Part shown: positions 2,219 to 49,873 of the stretch, piece after piece
Position numbering within the stretch: position 1 is the stretch's first letter
How the letters are laid out: every line of letters starts with the position of its first letter
DNA from: Candidatus Heimdallarchaeum endolithica
GTDB lineage: Archaea > Asgardarchaeota > Heimdallarchaeia > Heimdallarchaeales > Heimdallarchaeaceae
Reading direction: 5' to 3'
Assembly: GCA_021513715.1 (NCBI GenBank)
Contig: CP084167.1
Location: forward strand, 2,240,001-2,304,000
DNA length: 64,000 bases
Program-made: the position numbers and the translations under genes
Notes under the pieces: model-generated
What the model was told of the DNA's origin: nothing
Database searches by the model: none
Seen by the model: the letters and a program-made list of their open reading frames with translations, nothing else

Positions 2219-2275
2219 GTGTCGATAAAAAGTATAGACAAAAAATCTAAGTGTCGATAAAAAGTATAGACAAAA
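2219..2275. repeat. tandem 25-bp direct repeat GTGTCGATAAAAAGTATAGACAAAA x2 (2219-2243, 2251-2275), each an imperfect palindrome
   Basis: Exact duplication with a 32-bp period; internal TGTCgATA-N5-TATaGACA. Confidence 0.9.
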
Positions 2276-2327
2276 TAACAAAATCAAAAAAGAATAATGT
2301 TTTTTTTAACTTCAATAATAATATCAA

Positions 2328-3143
2328 TTATAATTGAATGGGCGGTTCATTTGGTTCTTTAGTATACGATAAAACATAATTGAAAATGTTACTGTATAAC
2401 ACGTAATCTTTTTCTGGATCTAAAAAAAATTCTTTTCCTGTTACCACATCGTTAAAATAAGTAGTAGAATGTTCTAAAATGATTATTTGATTAACAAAAG
2501 ATAGATTCAATATATCCATTATTTTTTGTTTTATTTCATTTGGTGTGGATGTGTTTTTGAAATTATTTATGATGATGTCCAAAGGTTTGATTTTAACATA
2601 CTCTGGGAAATGGGCTATTCTTTCCGCATTCGCTTTCAGCAAGAACAAGTTGGGACTTGCGACTAATATTGGTTTATCAGCTACAAATAGTGCATTTACG
2701 CTATAAATATTCAAAGTACTAGGGCAATCTATGATTATAAAGTCGTATTTTATTTTCATTTCTACAATCAAACCCATCAAAAAATCTAGGAATGTGTCTG
2801 CAGTGAGTGTAGTATATCTATTATTTATTTCATTGAGAGTCAAAACAGGTTCTACAATAGCAAAATCTATTCCTGTTTTGTGTTCTATTATACATTCATC
2901 GAAAGATTCATGTTCTGAAGAGTCTGAAACATTTCTTTTCAACAACCAATCGGTTAAATATTTTTCCTTTACCACTTTTCGATTCAGCAAATATTGATAG
3001 CTAGGATTAAAAATATCCAGTTCAACGACTAGTGTTTTCTTTTTTTCTCGCACAAACATTTTTCCCATATTGAGTGCGAGCATGGTTTTTCCTGTTCCCC
3101 CTTCAAATGAGAAGAGAGTAAGTAATTTACTTTTTCTTGTCAT
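2328..3143 (-). CDS. ParA/MinD-family P-loop ATPase
   Basis: EGGTGKT deviant Walker A, 'VVELD', 'YDFIIIDCPS', 'IIINN'. Confidence 0.85.
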   Translation of the reverse strand: MTRKSKLLTLFSFEGGTGKTMLALNMGKMFVREKKKTLVVELDIFNPSYQYLLNRKVVKEKYLTDWLLKRNVSDSSEHESFDECIIEHKTGIDFAIVEPVLTLNEINNRYTTLTADTFLDFLMGLIVEMKIKYDFIIIDCPSTLNIYSVNALFVADKPILVASPNLFLLKANAERIAHFPEYVKIKPLDIIINNFKNTSTPNEIKQKIMDILNLSFVNQIIILEHSTTYFNDVVTGKEFFLDPEKDYVLYSNIFNYVLSYTKEPNEPPIQL

Positions 3144-4263
3144 CTATTTTCACCAATGAAAAACAAGTTTTGCCATTGACTGCAGTAATCCTTCTTATTA
3201 TCCCCTTTTCCAATAAATACAATAGAGAATGCGTGATATATTCCTTATCACTGATATCATATTCCTTTTCCACATATTCTTCTATCTCATCTCTAGAAAT
3301 TGTATTATTAGTGTTCAGAGCAAGAATGGACTTGAGCACATAGGAAGAAGAATGATCCATTATCTCAAGCATAGTCCTAGTTGAAAAGTAGTTGTCTATC
3401 TCTTCCTCTTCTTTTCTTAACCTAGAACTGAAAGAGTCATAAACTATTTTTTCTACTTTTTTTTCTAATTCGTATAATTTATCTCTAACAGTATAAATAT
3501 TCAATTTTGAAGTAAGAAATCGCTCAAACTCTTTGACTATTTTTGATGCTAATAGGAATTTATACAACCCATGCGTGGTAATAACCATTAAACAAACGTA
3601 TACAGTAATTGGTTCTTGATTCTTAATTAATAAATAATAATCCACAGGATAGAAACTTTCCATTTGCTTAAACAAATTATACTTTTTCATTTTTATGAAA
3701 AAACGAGTAGCTGCATGATCATTATACATCTCAGTTTGTATTTTTATTCTCTCCATACATCTTCTTGTTTTTTCTGGGGTGAGTAGAGCATATGTATCTT
3801 CTATACTTTCTAGTTTCTTCAATTCTTCTTCTTTTTCGTATTCGCTAGCAATTAAACCTTTATTTTCTCCTATTTTATAAAGAAAAACAACTGACAATTT
3901 TTTTCCTAAAAAGTCTGTTAGCTCGTTTGGTTTTTCATTATAAAGGTTATTAGGAGTATAAAATTCTTCCGTAGTGCTAACAACTTTAACTTTTACTTTG
4001 TCTCCAACACTGAACAACTTCCTCAATCGATGAGAAAGATTGAATTCTAGCTTCCCACCTTTTGTTCGAATGATAGGTAAATCAACTCCTTGTTTGCCTA
4101 CTGTATCCTTACTCAAATTTTCCAAGTATATATGATACTCCTTTCCTCCTTCAATATCGCAGATAATCTCTTGTGGAAAACGAATTTTGAATCTGGTCAA
4201 TACAGTTGTAGTGAACTCTATAGGTGATTCATGCTGTATTGTTTTATTCTCTGTTACTGTCAT
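3127..4263 (-). CDS. hypothetical protein overlapping the ParA-like gene; possible AbrB-like N-terminus and C-terminal winged helix
   Basis: 'LSHRLRKLFSVGDKVKVKV' and 'ITHSLLYLLEKGIIRR' patterns; translational coupling. Confidence 0.6.
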   Translation of the reverse strand: MTVTENKTIQHESPIEFTTTVLTRFKIRFPQEIICDIEGGKEYHIYLENLSKDTVGKQGVDLPIIRTKGGKLEFNLSHRLRKLFSVGDKVKVKVVSTTEEFYTPNNLYNEKPNELTDFLGKKLSVVFLYKIGENKGLIASEYEKEEELKKLESIEDTYALLTPEKTRRCMERIKIQTEMYNDHAATRFFIKMKKYNLFKQMESFYPVDYYLLIKNQEPITVYVCLMVITTHGLYKFLLASKIVKEFERFLTSKLNIYTVRDKLYELEKKVEKIVYDSFSSRLRKEEEEIDNYFSTRTMLEIMDHSSSYVLKSILALNTNNTISRDEIEEYVEKEYDISDKEYITHSLLYLLEKGIIRRITAVNGKTCFSLVKIDDKKK

Positions 4264-4535
4264 TTCTTCTGCCCTCCATGTGCTGAACGAAAGATGAAAA
4301 AAATTCTTTCCAAAAATGTAATATGTAAAATGCTTTTTAAAGAAAGCAAAAAATCTCGGACGATATCAGAGAATCGAAAAGTAAAAGTACTCCCAGGACT
4401 AAATATGATTCTGTCCTTTATAAATTGTTTAAGAACTGAATTGTAAGTAAATTTTCCTTCTTCTTTTTTATCAGAAGCGACTAAATATAAATGAATAGAT
4501 GTTTTTTTTCCTTTTCCTTTTTCTTTTTTTCGCAT
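4260..4535 (-). CDS. small hypothetical protein, first gene of the ParA operon
   Basis: ATGA overlap with 3127..4263; GGAG upstream. Confidence 0.5.
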   Translation of the reverse strand: MRKKEKGKGKKTSIHLYLVASDKKEEGKFTYNSVLKQFIKDRIIFSPGSTFTFRFSDIVRDFLLSLKSILHITFLERIFFIFRSAHGGQKK

Positions 4536-4701
4536 TTTTTTCTCCTTGCATATTTTATCACTTCCGTCGCTCTGAGTATATATTATACTAAAGAATAAAT
4601 ACTCATTTAGTTTATTTACAACATATTATTTAAACTTTTGTTTTTATAAATACGGTAATTGAAAGGTCGAAGATATGTTTTATATATTCTAATGGTGTTA
4701 A

Positions 4702-5001
4702 ATGCGTATGAATGGCAAAAAAAACTATTCTCTCGAAGAATTAATCGCTACACTTGAACAAAAAGGAGCAATACATATACTCATTTATTTAGAGGAAAAG
4801 AAAAATGCTAATTTAACAAGTATTATGGAAAATACACCTAAAGTTGGACAAACAGCTATTTATACTGCTATTCGCAAACTGTTAGATCAGGAACTGATTA
4901 ATGAAAAGAAAGAACCCCCTTACAATCGCAGATTTTTTTCTCTAACCGATAGAGGAAAAAAAGTTGTTGAAATATTAAAAAAATTAAAAGAAATCACTTA
5001 A
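4702..5001 (+). CDS. winged-helix transcriptional regulator (HxlR/MarR-like)
   Basis: 'AIRKLLDQELI...RRFFSLTDRGKKV'. Confidence 0.8.
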   Translation: MRMNGKKNYSLEELIATLEQKGAIHILIYLEEKKNANLTSIMENTPKVGQTAIYTAIRKLLDQELINEKKEPPYNRRFFSLTDRGKKVVEILKKLKEIT

Positions 5002-5414
5002 TTTCCTAACTTTACTTTATACGTCCAATACATGATTTTTACAACTATTATTATGTTTAAGTCAAAAGTCCCTTCCTATTCTCTTTATTGCTTAGAATTA
5101 TTTTAATTATTGTTTTTTTATAATCTTAAACTCATTTTATCTCTTCTTTTTTTCCTCTAATTCTTTTATTTCTTCGAAAAAATAATGAAGAAAATAAGGT
5201 AAAAAGTCTAAATTAAACATATATTCTTTTTATTGATTTTATAGAGTTCCAACAATTTTCTTTTCTTTTATTTTCTTTACTTTCAATAGGATATATTTTA
5301 CTTTTTCTTTATTATTATTTGAAGCACTGACAGTTGTTAAAAACGTGAAAAGGTACCCAAGAGGAAATTTTAGATGAATGAAAAGAAGACAAGAAAAATT
5401 GAGAAAAAAAAAAG

Positions 5415-13843: not shown

Positions 13844-14059
13844 TCATTTTGTTTTAATAAAAGATGTAAATAAACCTTTTAATTGTTCCTTATTATTCCT
13901 TGATTTTTTTTCTATTTATAATGATTTCATTTAATGTTGATAGTATATCGTCAAAAATATAAATATTTTCAATGTTTAAGGAAACAAGAACCATTTTCCC
14001 AGTTATTTTGGAAAATCTCTCTCCTATGATTCTTACAAATTGTTCGTTTTTCATTCCAT

Positions 14060-15845
14060 AATTTACTTTTTGCGTAATTTTGCGAACATTAGGATAGAGA
14101 GTATGGATGAAAAAGAAAAAAAGGAAAAGAAGAGGAAAAAAGATGGAGAAGATAGTCAAAACTTTGAAAGTAAAAATAAAAAATGAAGTTTTGACGAGGA
14201 GAAAAAAGGAAAGATTAAGAAGAATAACAGGGAGAGACACAAGGATAATAGAAAATATGTAAAAATTATTCATCACAACAGAAGAAGACTGTGTATGAAA
14301 ACAAAGAAAGGAGAAATAAGAGTACATAGAGGAAAACTAGATGAACTAACATTGACAACATCAAGGCTAAAAAAAGTAGAAGAGAGACTGTTCCTCATGA
14401 CCTTAAAAAGATGTTCCCTTACTGTTCTCACGATGAGTTTCAAGAGTGTAGAGACATAGCAGTACAACTGTACGAGCAAGGATATAGACCTGAAGCCACT
14501 CGTCCTCCAAAAAAGAGACCCAGAAGACAACTAATCAATAAGAATAGGTTTATTCTTACTAATTTGCCAAAAGAGAAAAACAACTCCATTTCTCGTTGGT
14601 GGGTAGGAATAAGAGACTCATTAGACACGTGGAAAAGAAAGACAAGGTATCATCAACGATTATGGTTGCCTTTAGAGATGAGCACTTTTCATCAAAAAGA
14701 ATTGAAAAAAGGACAAATAAAAAGTTTAGAACTGAGATATAAACGTTCTACAAGTGAGTGGTGGGTGTATTTTCAATTAGAAGTTCTTCCTCCTTCTTCT
14801 TTTCCTTGTCCAGTTGATAATTCTTCTTCTCTTCCTCCAGCTGTACTGGGGATAGATCTAGGGATAAACATTCCTGCTGCAGGAGTGTTATTAACGCCCA
14901 AAAGGAAATTAACTATTAAAGAGATAAAATTCTGGCATACCAAACAGTGGAATAGAATCAATCATAGATATAAACTCAAGCTTTCCCGTCTTCAGAGGAA
15001 AGGGGCTTTAAATGACCAGTCGGGTAAAAAACACCAAATTTATCGTTTTCTTGGATATCTTCGTCGGAGATATAGAAACGTTAAACGGTCCTATATTCAC
15101 CAATTTGTAAGAGATGTTGTGCAGACGATAGAGACCTATGCTCAAATGTATGACTTTTTCGTCGTCGTAGGTTACCCCAAAAATGTTAGAAAAGGAAAAG
15201 GAAAAGAAAAAGGGAAAGAAAAAAGTACTCGTTATTTTCGTAGAAAACTTCACCAGTGGAATTATGCTCTTGTTCTTTCTCTTCTCCGTCGAGCACTTAT
15301 ACTTCGAGGTTTTGCTCCTCATCGTATTCTTATAATAGACGAAAGAGGAACATCTTCTCATTGTTCCCGTTGTGGAAAAGAAGTTTCTCGTCCCGTTAGA
15401 GGATTAGTACACTGTCCCTTTTGTAACTATACTTACCACTCTGATTTAACAGGGGCTAGAAATATTGCTCGTAAGTTCCTTAGTCATCTTTTTCGTCCCC
15501 GTGCTACAACTATTGCTGATTACTTTACTGGTCAAAAATTCAGTCTTACTCATTACACTGTTTGCCGAGGACTCAGCCATTGGTTGTAGTCCCAGTAGAC
15601 AAAAAGAAATAATTACTCTTATATTCAAGGGCTAGTTATTCTTTCATTTTTGTCTCTCGTGGAGTGAAGAAAAGAGCTTACAACTCTTTTTTTCTTTATG
15701 ATTCCCCCGATTCGTGTATGACGTCTGTCTTAATCTCCTTCTTCTTTCATTGTATGTTAGGATTAAGTTCTCAAGAAACTGACAATTATCTCTTATTGTT
15801 TTTTTCTTGAAAGACTGAGTTCGACAAACTTCGCAAAAAGTAAAT
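14060..15845 (+). mobile_element. TnpB-carrying element with terminal inverted repeats, CAT at both junctions, target CATG; no transposase
   Basis: ATTTACTTTTTGCG (14061-14074) is the reverse complement of 15832-15845, with imperfect extension to ~27 bp; CAT at 14057-59 and 15846-48. Confidence 0.9.
14107..15589 (+). CDS. tnpB: TnpB-family RNA-guided nuclease with rearranged RuvC-II; 5' part has two -1 frameshifts (~14255, ~14370); intact ORF 14411..15589
   Basis: GIDLG (RuvC-I), VVVGYP, IIDERGTSSHCSRCG, CPFC, HSDLTGARNI; upstream frames read MEKIVKTLKVKIK... Confidence 0.88.
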
Positions 15846-15848
15846 CAT
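15590..15848 (+). ncRNA. putative omegaRNA scaffold of the TnpB element
   Basis: Stacked hairpins (AGACAAAAA/TTTTTGTCT, AAAAGAG/CTCTTTT, CTTAATC/GATTAAG, TCAAGAAA/TTTCTTGA) between the tnpB stop and the right end; homologous to 27898-28081. Confidence 0.7.
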
Positions 15849-16017
15849 GTAAAAGGCTAGTTGAAGAAGAAAAATCGATTGGAGGGTATGATAAGCCTAT
15901 AGTACCTAATTTCGGTGATTTTTCTGATATAAAAATAGATATTCCATTATCAAAAAAAATTACTGAAAGAAAAAATAAATTATCTTTTATTTCAACATCT
16001 TTGTTTACTATTTCTAG

Positions 16018-17030
16018 AAGCATGTCCAAAAATTAATTTTTATTGATATGGGGGTTTATGTCGGAATTATCACACATTTCCAGATTTTAGACTCCCACAA
16101 AGTAAGAAAATTCACAGTCATTAATGGACCTTTCCTTAAGAAACTGGTGAAAGTGGAACCGAGAGAAAGTAAGAGAGGGAGAAAGAGAATAGCAGAAAGG
16201 TGGGTAATATTAGCAATAGCAATCATTGCTAGAATAGAAGGGATAGCTTGGAGGAAGTTAGAAGAAAAGTTGTCTCTATGCGCTTTTTTGATAGAAGAGG
16301 GGTGGATGAGGAAGATTCCTTCTAAATCCACTTTTCATGCTGTGTGGAGAGCGACAGAAAGTAAAATCTTAGAGCAGTGGATAATAGAGTTGGGGAGAGA
16401 AATAGTGAGAAAAAAAGGGTTGAAAGCTATGTCGGTGGGCAGTTCAGGTTTTAAAATTCGTCAAGCTTCTGTTTTGCGTTTTCTCAAATGGTCAAGAGAG
16501 ACACTAAAGAAAACCTCCCAACTAAACTTTTCTGGAAGATACACCTTATAGTTGGTTTACCCTCCAGAGCTATAGTCTCTCTAGCTCATTCTGCTAGTAA
16601 CACTCACGATAGTAAAGTCTTCGGTTTGCTATGGCAGAAACTTCCTTCTGTACTCTTGAGACCTTTCTTGAGATTCTATGGTGACTGTGCCTACTGGATA
16701 GAAAATATCGTCGGTCTTCTTAGACAACATTCCTTTTTTCCCTGTTATTTGTTATTCCCCCAAAAAGTAATGTTCGTTATCCCTCTCCTCCTCTCTGACC
16801 AATAGTTCAAGCTCATCTTCTCTACCCTTGTCTCTATCGCCATAATCATCACCCCGAGTATCGTAGTACTATTGAACACGTCTTTGGTCTCCTCAAACTC
16901 TCTCTTCTCCCATCCTTGATCGTTTACCCTCCACCATCCTCTCTACTCTTTTTAGTTTTCTCCTCTGTTACAACTACCTTTTACTCCTTCGTACCGTTTA
17001 GTAGGCGAAAAAGAATTTTTGGACATGCTT
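16018..17030 (+). mobile_element. IS4/IS5-superfamily (DDE_Tnp_1-like) insertion sequence, degenerate copy
   Basis: 17-bp TIR AAGCATGTCCAAAAATT; 7-bp TSD TTTCTAG (16011-17, 17031-37). Confidence 0.92.
16048..17001 (+). pseudogene. frameshifted DDE transposase
   Basis: Fragments 16048..16551 and 16488..16805 match 47448..48392; first catalytic D changed to G (SVGSSG). Confidence 0.9.
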
Positions 17031-17180
17031 TTTCTAGTTTTATAATCAAAATTTTTTTTCTATCATTGTAAATTTTTTTATTATTTGAAGTTCTCTTGAG
17101 TCTATTTTCTCTAAAATTTTGATATTTCTCGTAATTAAAAGTAAAAGTTTTTTAATGTTAAGAAGTTCGCTAATGCAAGA

Positions 17181-47367: not shown

Positions 47368-47418
47368 TAAAAAAGATTAATCTTTCATTACAGTATTTAC
47401 AACTATATGATTTATAAT

Positions 47419-48422
47419 AAGCATGTCCAAAAATTCTTTTTCACCAACTAAACGGTCCGAAGGAGTAAAAGGTAGTTGTAACAGAGAAGAGAACTGTACA
47501 AGGTAGAGAGAATGGTGGAGGGTAAACGATCAAGGATTGGGGGAAGAGAGAGTTTAAGGAGACCAAAGACGTGTTCAATACTACTACGATACTCGGGATG
47601 ATGATTACGACGATACAGACCAGGGTAGAGACGATGAGCTTGAACTATTGGTCCGAGGGGAGGAGGAGAGGGATAACGAGCATTACTTTTTGGGGGAATA
47701 ACAGGGAAAAAGGAATGTTGGCTAAGAAGTCCAACGATATTTTCTGTCCAGTAGGCACAGTCTCCATAAAATCGCAAGAAAGGTCTCAAGAGTGCAGAAG
47801 GAAGTTTCTGCCAGAGTAAACCGAAGACTTTACTATCGTGAGTGTTACTAGCAGAATGAGCGAGAGAGACTATAGCTCGAGAGGGTAAACCAACTATAAG
47901 GTGTATCTTCCAGAAAAGTTTAGAGGTTTTCTTTAGTGTCCCTCTTGACCATTTGAGAAAACGCCAAACAGAAGCTTGACGGATTTTAAACCCTGAACTA
48001 TCCACTGCCATAGCTTTCAAGCCTTTTTTCCTCACTATTTCCCTACCTAAATCTATTATCCACTGCTCTAAGATTTTACTTTCTGTCGCTCTCCACACTG
48101 CATGAAAAGTAGATTTAGAAGGAATCTTCTTCATCCACCCCTCTTCTATCAAAAAATCGCATAAAGACAACTTTTCCTCTAACTTCCTCCAAGCTATCCC
48201 TTCTATTCTAGCAATGATTGCTAAAGCCAGTATCACCCATCTTTCTGCTATTCTCTTTCTCCCTCTCTTGCTTTCTCTCGGTTCCTCTTTCACCAGTTTC
48301 TTAAGGAAAGGTTCATTAATGATTATGAATTCTCTTGCTTTGTGGGGGTCTATGATCTGAAAGAAATTCATACTTCCGACATAAACCCCCACATTAATAA
48401 AAATTAATTTTTGGACATGCTT
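47419..48422 (-). mobile_element. IS4/IS5-superfamily insertion sequence, intact copy
   Basis: Same 17-bp TIR as 16018-17030; no matching TSD. Confidence 0.92.
47448..48392 (-). CDS. DDE transposase
   Basis: AVDSSG, HDS, YGDCAY, RSSIEHVFGLLK. Confidence 0.93.
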   Translation of the reverse strand: MGVYVGSMNFFQIIDPHKAREFIIINEPFLKKLVKEEPRESKRGRKRIAERWVILALAIIARIEGIAWRKLEEKLSLCDFLIEEGWMKKIPSKSTFHAVWRATESKILEQWIIDLGREIVRKKGLKAMAVDSSGFKIRQASVWRFLKWSRGTLKKTSKLFWKIHLIVGLPSRAIVSLAHSASNTHDSKVFGLLWQKLPSALLRPFLRFYGDCAYWTENIVGLLSQHSFFPVIPPKSNARYPSPPPLGPIVQAHRLYPGLYRRNHHPEYRSSIEHVFGLLKLSLPPILDRLPSTILSTLYSSLLCYNYLLLLRTV

Positions 48423-48451
48423 AAATTAATTAGATTGATTTTGTAACTTTA

Positions 48452-49873
48452 TTGGTTGAAATACACTCTATATGGATAAGATTAATATTTATCAAATTTG
48501 TTGTTTTAATAATGAGTTCGATAATAGAAAAGAGAATATACCAAATTACAACTTTAAAGCATAAAGATGATGTCAATCGCGTTCTTGTTGATGAACAATA
48601 CATCTATAGTGCTTCTTCTGATAAAACTGTAAAAGTTTGGGATAAATTTACATTTGATGAGGTTGCAATATTATCTCATAAAAAACAAGTAAATGACATC
48701 GCAATAGATGATAACTATATCTATAGTGCGACCAATGATGCTCGAGTTTCTATTTGGGAAAAAAATAGTTGGGAAAATGTGACCTCCCTTCCACATGATG
48801 GATTTGTAGAGAGAGTAGTTGTAGATGGCAACTTTGTCTATACTTCTTCTGATGATTTTTCTGTTAGAATTTGGGATAAAAAAAATTGGAAGGTAGTGTT
48901 AGGGTTAAGAGTATCAGGAGAAGTGAACACCCTTTTTGTAGACAAAGATTTTCTTTATACTGGAAAGGGAACAAAAGTAAAAATCTGGGCGAAAGATAAT
49001 TTTGATGTAGTCACAACGATAAAATTACCTATGTTTAGTGCTGTGCGCACGATATATGTAGATGAGGATTTCATTTATATCGGAGGAAGTGAAAAAAATG
49101 TTCGTGTATTTGATAAAAATTCAAAAAAACTTGTAGCTAAACTTCCTCATTCTGCTATTTCAATTGTTTATTCAATATACGGTGATGATCAATATATTCT
49201 TACAGGGTTAAGTGACAATAAAGTTGTAGTTTGGAAGAAAAGCGATTTCTCAAAAGTTACTTCTCTAAGTATTTCGGGGCAAGTGAAGTCAGTGTTCAGT
49301 GATGGAATAAGATTTTATTCTGGTAGTTCTGATAAAAAAGTTAGAGTTTTTGAACCAGCAATTTATGAAGAAAAAAGAAAGAAGCAAGAAGCAAAGAGAA
49401 AAGAACAAGAATTTAAAAAGAAAAAGGAACTAGAGGAGAAAAAAAGGAAAGACGAGGAGAAAAGAAAAAAAGAGGAGGAGAAGAAAAAAGAGAAACTTAG
49501 AAAAGAACAAATGAAAAAGGAGAAAGAAGAAGCCAAAGAAAGAGAGAAACAAGAGAAAAAGCGAGAAGAAAGAAAGAAAAAGGAAGAAGAAAAAGAGAAA
49601 AAGCGAGAAGAAAGAATAACAACAATAAGAAACATCTTGAAAAAAAGTGATTCAATAGAAATTAACTTGCTAATGGAAATTCTAGACTTTTCAACAAAAG
49701 CAGCGCTGTTGAAATTCTTATATAATTTACCAGAAGATTTCCCAATAATAATTAAAGATGATAAAGTGTTTTTCTCCACACCTAATAAAAAAGAAAAAGA
49801 AGTCCATAAAGCAATAGATGACTTGTTGAAAAAATATGAAGAATGGGAGCAGAGTGATGTTTCTAAGATATAA
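48452..49873 (+). CDS. WD40-repeat protein with charged coiled coil and C-terminal helical domain
   Basis: About 7 repeats of the 'YIYSASSDKTVKVWD' type, then an E/K/R-rich tract. Confidence 0.9.
   Translation: MVEIHSIWIRLIFIKFVVLIMSSIIEKRIYQITTLKHKDDVNRVLVDEQYIYSASSDKTVKVWDKFTFDEVAILSHKKQVNDIAIDDNYIYSATNDARVSIWEKNSWENVTSLPHDGFVERVVVDGNFVYTSSDDFSVRIWDKKNWKVVLGLRVSGEVNTLFVDKDFLYTGKGTKVKIWAKDNFDVVTTIKLPMFSAVRTIYVDEDFIYIGGSEKNVRVFDKNSKKLVAKLPHSAISIVYSIYGDDQYILTGLSDNKVVVWKKSDFSKVTSLSISGQVKSVFSDGIRFYSGSSDKKVRVFEPAIYEEKRKKQEAKRKEQEFKKKKELEEKKRKDEEKRKKEEEKKKEKLRKEQMKKEKEEAKEREKQEKKREERKKKEEEKEKKREERITTIRNILKKSDSIEINLLMEILDFSTKAALLKFLYNLPEDFPIIIKDDKVFFSTPNKKEKEVHKAIDDLLKKYEEWEQSDVSKI

Follow-up and report, generated by a model that had tools for sequence, protein, structure and literature searches.

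A tnpB pseudogene in AT-core inverted-repeat ends, and its intact relatives, in the Asgard archaeon Candidatus Heimdallarchaeum endolithica

The window analysed here is a stretch of 64,000 nucleotides from Candidatus Heimdallarchaeum endolithica (contig CP084167.1, positions 2,240,001 to 2,304,000), whose genome forms a single contig of 3,326,783 bases. At 14060-15848 it holds an element that carries a tnpB pseudogene (14143-15589; NF040570, PF07282), and all features of the element lie on the forward strand. The true start of the gene is the ATG at 14143. The TnpB protein matches PF07282 and also NF040570 (E=2.6e-24 and E=8.7e-24, the latter at 84.5 bits, which is under the 100-bit cut-off). 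The left terminal inverted repeat (14060-14091), recognized by its match to the right end, contains two tandem TTTTGCG.AA-like motifs 10 bp apart, and the right repeat (15815-15848) closes with a terminal TC and an AT core; the two ends agree as an inverted repeat at 23 of 32 positions. Directly to the left lies the host target CCAT (14056-14059), a predicted TAM whose final AT is the junction core common to the right end, and directly to the right lies host flank (15849-15868) that is the predicted guide. A predicted omegaRNA scaffold (15590-15848) spans the region between gene and right end. The initial annotation had already placed its feature at 14060-15848, which proves to be the exact extent of the element, and had suspected an Asgard host, as the homologue names confirm by pointing to Heimdallarchaeum: close homologues of the protein belong to Ca. 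Heimdallarchaeum aukensis and to Heimdallarchaeaceae.

Other repeats populate the window. An IS5-like DDE element (~33 copies, repeat AAGCATGTCCAAAAATT, ~8-9 bp duplication) occurs at 16018-17033 and 47388-48454; the first of these copies begins 170 bp downstream of the TnpB element, is frameshifted and is absent at the H. aukensis site. The segments at 1044-2044 and 2219-5089 are repeated as well: they comprise an IS-like family of three copies and a duplication of 2.9 kb.

All TnpB motifs are held by the frame 3 ORF at 14411-15589, where GIDLG, VVVGYP, a Glu 57 residues further on before the zinc finger, and HSDLTGARN are found as first described. RuvC-I GIDLG (14849-14863) provides D241 of the intact protein, and alignments place the Gly of VVVGYP (15161-15178) at the canonical RuvC-II position. 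IIDERG (15332-15349) contains the alternative catalytic Glu, E401, predicted from alignments and a structure model and located seven positions ahead of the first zinc-finger Cys. The C4 zinc finger and RuvC-III together occupy 15362-15463, with CSRC at 15362-15373, CPFC at 15413-15424 and HSDLTGARN at 15437-15463; here the family consensus is NADLNG, and in the Heimdallarchaeum copies Thr stands at the second residue past the Asp, where Asn is conserved. The spacing from Gly to Glu is 57 aa in this copy and 55 aa in intact copies (G346/E401). Across an alignment of 25 family members D241 never varies, and conservation is at least 90% at both E401 and D435. In the structure model (pLDDT 81), E401 sits at the end of the fifth RNase H strand (396-400), which is where it has been placed in rearranged TnpBs (PMC10691335), and the TnpB model fold matches Cas12f/TnpB structures at Z 16-18.

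The copy at 14060-15848 is a pseudogene. The two frameshifts noted at the outset stem from deletions of 1 bp near 14252 and of 7 bp near 14379, and pairwise alignments with two other copies locate at 14107-14112 a 58-bp deletion that has removed the TTTTTATAAG TATA-like box, a putative promoter upstream of tnpB in intact copies. Because the 1-bp deletion near 14252 is also present in the copy at 2707656, it was inherited and is not a one-off assembly error, and dead copies evidently spread. The genome contains 12 near full-length, dispersed copies that are 79-97% identical to one another, together with two more divergent ones at 52% amino-acid identity, besides fragments. In 8 near copies tnpB is intact and encodes 479-486 aa, close to the ~490 aa first estimated, with a dN/dS of 0.13-0.22 that denotes purifying selection; examples on the minus strand are 2639485-2641323 of subfamily 1 and 2031511-2033369 of subfamily 2. 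The copies are mosaics of one another. One of them (3321690-3323548) is chimeric, its left two-thirds belonging to subfamily 2 and its right third to subfamily 1, and its flank, GCAT, goes with the N-terminal part. An H. aukensis copy (L019:5001-7167) is 2.6 kb long and seems to have its 3′ part duplicated internally. Remnants with only a right end lie at 2097405, 2053091, 1816990, 2350548 and 2268081; they keep the omegaRNA scaffold partly or wholly and are possible stand-alone guide loci.

The pseudogene state of this copy and the slightly degenerate RuvC-III motif would suit a clade that is catalytically dead or regulatory, in which the Gly would signify that RuvC-II is lost and the Glu would have a structural role. 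We consider this improbable, given that the family conserves all three acidic residues and that the intact copies are under purifying selection. Moreover, Fanzor2 requires the alternative Glu, a TnpB of the same arrangement cuts DNA (PMC10530073), and the bias in flanking bases described below fits TAM-dependent retention. The intact copies are instead probably active members of a large Asgard TnpB clade with an alternative RuvC-II Glu, as judged from their sequences.

All copies are bounded by inverted repeats, and the two subfamilies differ at both ends together. At the H. aukensis empty site CCAT is joined straight to the right flank, which shows precise insertion, and several H. aukensis insertions have matching empty sites in the H. 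endolithica genome. AT is the sole sequence common to both junctions, and a duplication of CATG was rejected on this ground. Insertion is precise over the 2-bp AT core, with empty sites restored, and looks the same as a 2-bp duplication would. The preferred target is C-AT-G, with C in 44/45 and G in 37/45 matches, some of them spurious or counted twice. Related family-9 elements terminate in TTG-AT. Among the left ends several read AT-A, and some left flanks differ from CAT.

The junction can also be read as that of a solo TnpB of the ordinary IS200/IS605 kind (IS1341-type), moved by Y1, with NCAT as the left cleavage site and TCAT as the right end, and the genome does hold one Y1 tnpA. We give this reading little credence, since inspection revealed no sub-terminal hairpins, the ends covary as inverted repeats and members of one subfamily differ in the base at -4; in addition, the resident IS605 has hairpin ends of its own (TCAC) and has itself been hit by an AT-core MITE.

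The AT-core end type is not confined to this TnpB. It also occurs on a canonical-Glu TnpB in three copies (L005/L006/L007), on an unrelated 414-aa TnpB and on two MITE families without genes (19 and 7 copies), and the same element anatomy recurs in other genera of Heimdallarchaeaceae. Of the unrelated TnpBs in AT-core ends, the one at L004:1642-2886 (genome 597977-599492) has the Gly and the alternative Glu but lacks the zinc finger. The window itself contains, at 55243-55620, one of the 19 copies of a 380-bp MITE that combines AT-core ends with an omegaRNA-like scaffold; the flanks of this MITE (C, A, G and rarely T before CAT) would fit in-trans use of these TnpBs. A genome-wide scan for AT-core repeat pairs returned TnpB elements, MITEs and noise only, as did pattern searches of relatives and metagenomes.

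The 3′ region of the element folds better than shuffled sequences (z=-2.3), and the final six bases are complementary to a segment ~150-190 nt upstream. The arms of this predicted pseudoknot, 15698-15703 and 15843-15848, form a 6-bp pair that exists in three covarying versions: ATGATT/AATCAT in the copy at 14060-15848, ATGAGT/ACTCAT in relatives and in the 19-copy MITE, and ATAAGT/ACTTAT in the locus L034. No Rfam family matched the 3′ RNA region. Since the terminal six bases take part in the pseudoknot, the scaffold would take in the AT core and the guide would begin at 15849, and a comparable inclusion of the core and start of the guide are known from IS607 omegaRNAs (PMC10711439; 10.1101/2023.11.20.567912). 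The flank after the right end varies among copies, and we infer that this right-flank DNA supplies the guide.

The base that precedes the insertion tracks the type of TnpB. Elements ending in TCAT are preceded by TCAT in 1/30 cases and those ending in TGAT in 8/9 (Fisher p=1.3e-6), against a background of 34% T. At a finer level, the flank is CCAT in 6/6 copies of subfamily 1 and RCAT in 6/6 of subfamily 2. Retention of elements through TnpB cutting of empty sites would require a TAM in the flank and none at the element's own end, and IS607 offers a precedent for this combination of core dinucleotide, TAM and self-avoidance (10.1101/2023.11.20.567912). The bias in the flanks, like the purifying selection on intact copies, is indirect evidence that would fit TAM-dependent retention and RNA-guided cleavage; the bias could instead stem from end-specific targeting by the transposase.

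Searches of the H. endolithica and H. aukensis genomes for IS607 TnpA, IS630, DDE_Tnp_4 and aCas1 found none; specifically, the element has no IS607 TnpA (a serine recombinase with an N-terminal HTH), and neither genome has a match over the cut-off. The single resident Y1 TnpA was rejected as the mover because its IS605 has its own hairpin ends and a TCAC terminus, the IS5-like element because of its different repeats and longer duplication, and the resident Cas1 matches are ordinary CRISPR cas1 and not aCas1. That IS605 (L003, genome 923910-925960) is canonical, with Y1 tnpA and hairpin ends; its TnpB also has the Gly and the alternative Glu, and an AT-core MITE sits between the promoter and the tnpA start. 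Two small resident serine recombinases without an N-terminal HTH are single-copy and present in 28/30 genomes of the family. These paralogous proteins of 240-250 aa (L001:1729-2451 and L002:1849-2598) consist of a catalytic domain and a short C-terminal DNA-binding part, and at E<=1e-20 they occur in no other Asgard family; we regard them as candidate movers.

Dinucleotide symmetry, phased tandem end motifs and an IS607-linked sister branch favour a serine-type exchange. An IS607-like serine-recombinase exchange over the AT core is accordingly the most likely means of movement, with about an even chance of being correct. A DDE enzyme that duplicates AT is distinctly less likely, aCas1 somewhat less so again, and Y1 least of these. 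IS607 elements classically have GG ends without true terminal inverted repeats (PMC6188088), and those in related genomes have other ends. TnpB elements with inverted repeats, and solo copies moved in trans, have already been reported (PMC10691335).

The family matches 86/400 Asgard genomes at E<=1e-30, although the weakest of these matches may be other TnpBs. The matches fall mostly in the host family (16/30) and in one large Thorarchaeota-like family. In two members of the sister branch IS607 TnpA lies directly upstream of TnpB, and at 19/30 loci of the Thor-type branch TnpB stands head-to-head with a gene of 1,400-2,000 aa. This gene has no Pfam matches, and its N-terminal 300 aa are predicted to adopt the Cas1 catalytic-domain fold. 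In a fold search of 48,161 chains the top 12 were all Cas1 or casposase (Z 12.8-8.6; next fold 6.5), counting 2yzs (Aquifex, titled uncharacterized), which we take to be a Cas1. The domain aligns with 4n06 over 191 residues at an rmsd of 3.8, and E68, H191 and D201 are invariant. A Pfam Cas1 search near family TnpBs found none because aCas1 is too divergent for it; structure prediction revealed aCas1. Of 14 Thor-type loci, 11 carry GTTCACTCA, the published motif of aCas1-associated Asgard TnpBs (PMC10691335). The motif is restricted to the Thor-type branch, an aCas1 partner was found in 0/30 Heimdallarchaeaceae genomes, and no aCas1 gene adjoins the element or was found elsewhere in the H. endolithica genome.

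The Cas1-domain neighbour and GTTCACTCA make it most likely that the clade is already catalogued as Cas1H-Asgard, the published group having been compared by motif, clade and neighbour. The protein is a member of an Asgard clade that is linked elsewhere to aCas1 or to IS607 TnpA, and the proposal that it is undescribed is doubtful, as its sister branch matches the aCas1-associated Asgard TnpBs (PMC10691335). The giant genes of the Thorarchaeota-like genomes (L025:107-5740 on the minus strand; L412-L441) are multi-copy, lack the usual N-terminal beta domain of Cas1 and have a PD-(D/E)xK-like motif near residues 400-430, with >1,200 aa unexplained; their loci are candidates for large aCas1 transposons. 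In one genus (L026, L037, L042, L043, L045), family TnpBs repeatedly adjoin a gene for a HerA/DUF87-type ATPase.

The initial annotation saw in the Gly and relocated Glu a hallmark of Fanzors and of a minority of prokaryotic TnpBs, and in the protein a possible Fanzor-like clade. The Fanzor lineage is defined by DPG together with the alternative Glu, and the same paper derives Fanzors from cyanobacterial IS607 pro-Fanzors (PMC10711439). RuvC-II rearrangement as such extends over two major clades and eight large branches, several of them nearly archaeal-only (PMC10691335), and TvTnpB of Thermoplasma volcanium, an archaeal rearranged TnpB, is active in DNA cutting (PMC10530073). The swap is common, and it is also found in two unrelated TnpBs of the same genome. 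The case that the family is an archaeal relative or ancestor of Fanzors, sharing the alternative Glu through recent common ancestry and tracing eukaryotic RNA-guided nucleases back to Asgard archaea, draws on several likenesses. As in Fanzors and pro-Fanzors, the Glu stands six residues upstream of the zinc finger, and in the alignment E401 falls in exactly the column that contains the alternative Glu in DPG Fanzor2-type viral proteins. The host lineage is near eukaryotes, the elements have inverted repeats and a 2-bp core like Fanzor-bearing eukaryotic transposons, and the sister clade is IS607-linked, as is Fanzor2. Yet E401 aligns equally well with the alternative Glu of the Y1-linked TnpB family of the same genome. 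That family also gives the better profile match, at E 3e-25 and 28% identity, albeit across a longer alignment, compared with E 6e-20 and 15% identity for the DPG proteins. RuvC-I across the family alignment is DLG or similar and never DPG, and RuvC-III has the NADLNG consensus, of the NADxN type, as opposed to DRDxNG in the DPG proteins.

A quick RuvC tree (113 sequences, ~240 columns), with neighbours picked by likeness to the query, without Fanzor1 and with Fanzor2-type DPG rows recognized by motif alone, sets the family apart: it forms a clade (99, starred) among other DxG TnpBs, and the DPG proteins form a separate one (97, starred). Forcing a union with the Fanzor2-type proteins costs 42 log-likelihood units, with an AU p=0.078 by which that union is neither supported nor rejected. 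Among solved structures the relatives by sequence are Cas12f/TnpB; the PDB sequence matches include no Fanzor, and in the fold rankings a Fanzor2 structure comes 19th and 15th. These differences, and the published derivation of Fanzors from cyanobacterial IS607 pro-Fanzors (PMC10711439), leave kinship with Fanzors very unlikely. On the sequence comparisons the alternative Glu is a feature shared among TnpBs and not a sign of such kinship, and the catalytic swap holds nothing new on Fanzor origins.

Taken together, the locus is probably a decayed copy of a non-autonomous, TnpB-only element of Heimdallarchaeaceae whose intact copies would cut empty sites and whose mover would act in trans. Intact copies would make TnpB, with the triad D241/E401/D435, and an omegaRNA whose guide comes from the right flank. 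After scarless excision the TnpB complex would cut the empty site of NCAT plus flank, and repair from a filled copy would restore the element, which would itself be spared because its own end, TCAT, is not a TAM. The copy at 14060-15848, which makes no full protein, would still be movable by an enzyme acting in trans and could supply its guide to the TnpB of other copies. The unusual part is the symmetric ends without a cognate transposase; the catalytic swap is real but common. More tentatively, and with the balance against it, Heimdallarchaeia may possess an undescribed transposon system of AT-core symmetric ends, whose trans mover matches no known IS transposase (possibly the 240-250-aa serine recombinases), which has captured several unrelated TnpBs and in which the TAM decides which insertions persist. 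If this is true, the flanks are a natural read-out of TAMs. One end type with at least three unrelated TnpB clades and guide-only MITEs amounts in any case to a natural experiment, in which the flank base predicts the TAM of each (CCAT, RCAT, TCAT). A single nuclease clade also appears with IS607 TnpA, with aCas1 or with no partner, according to the Asgard lineage, and the enzyme that moves AT-core ends, once found, would define a new IS type.

Several known systems share parts of this arrangement. Like the IS607 family (IS607, IS1535, ISXfa1, CboIStron), the element inserts precisely over a shared dinucleotide, has its core within the omegaRNA scaffold and bears tandem phased end motifs, and sister-clade TnpBs follow IS607 TnpA; unlike that family, it has an AT core in place of GG, true inverted repeats and no tnpA in the element or genome. 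DDE-1 to -6 and solo TnpBs (PMC10691335) resemble it in having inverted ends and a solo TnpB moved in trans, but no DDE transposase with matching ends was found in H. endolithica. The aCas1-associated Asgard TnpBs (Cas1H-Asgard-1/2; Altae-Tran 2023, PMC10691335) probably belong to the same protein clade, as the Thor-type branch does in the tree, whereas the Heimdallarchaeaceae copies are without aCas1 and without the motif, alone in AT-core inverted-repeat elements. TnpB2/RIIr and TvTnpB (PMC10530073) have the Gly at the canonical site, the Glu before the zinc finger and a hydrophobic residue in the RuvC-I DxG in common with the family. In contrast to RuvC-II-rearranged TnpBs of this kind, the Heimdallarchaeum family lies outside Y1-type IS605 and has other ends, and it is ~80-100 aa longer than the two other rearranged TnpBs in the genome. 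Finally, Fanzor2 and pro-Fanzors (PMC10711439, PDB 9b0l) match it in the position of the alternative Glu, the zinc finger and a similar length, but theirs is a DPG and DRDxN arrangement, whereas the Heimdallarchaeum TnpB combines DLG with NADxN in a separate clade and a prokaryotic host.
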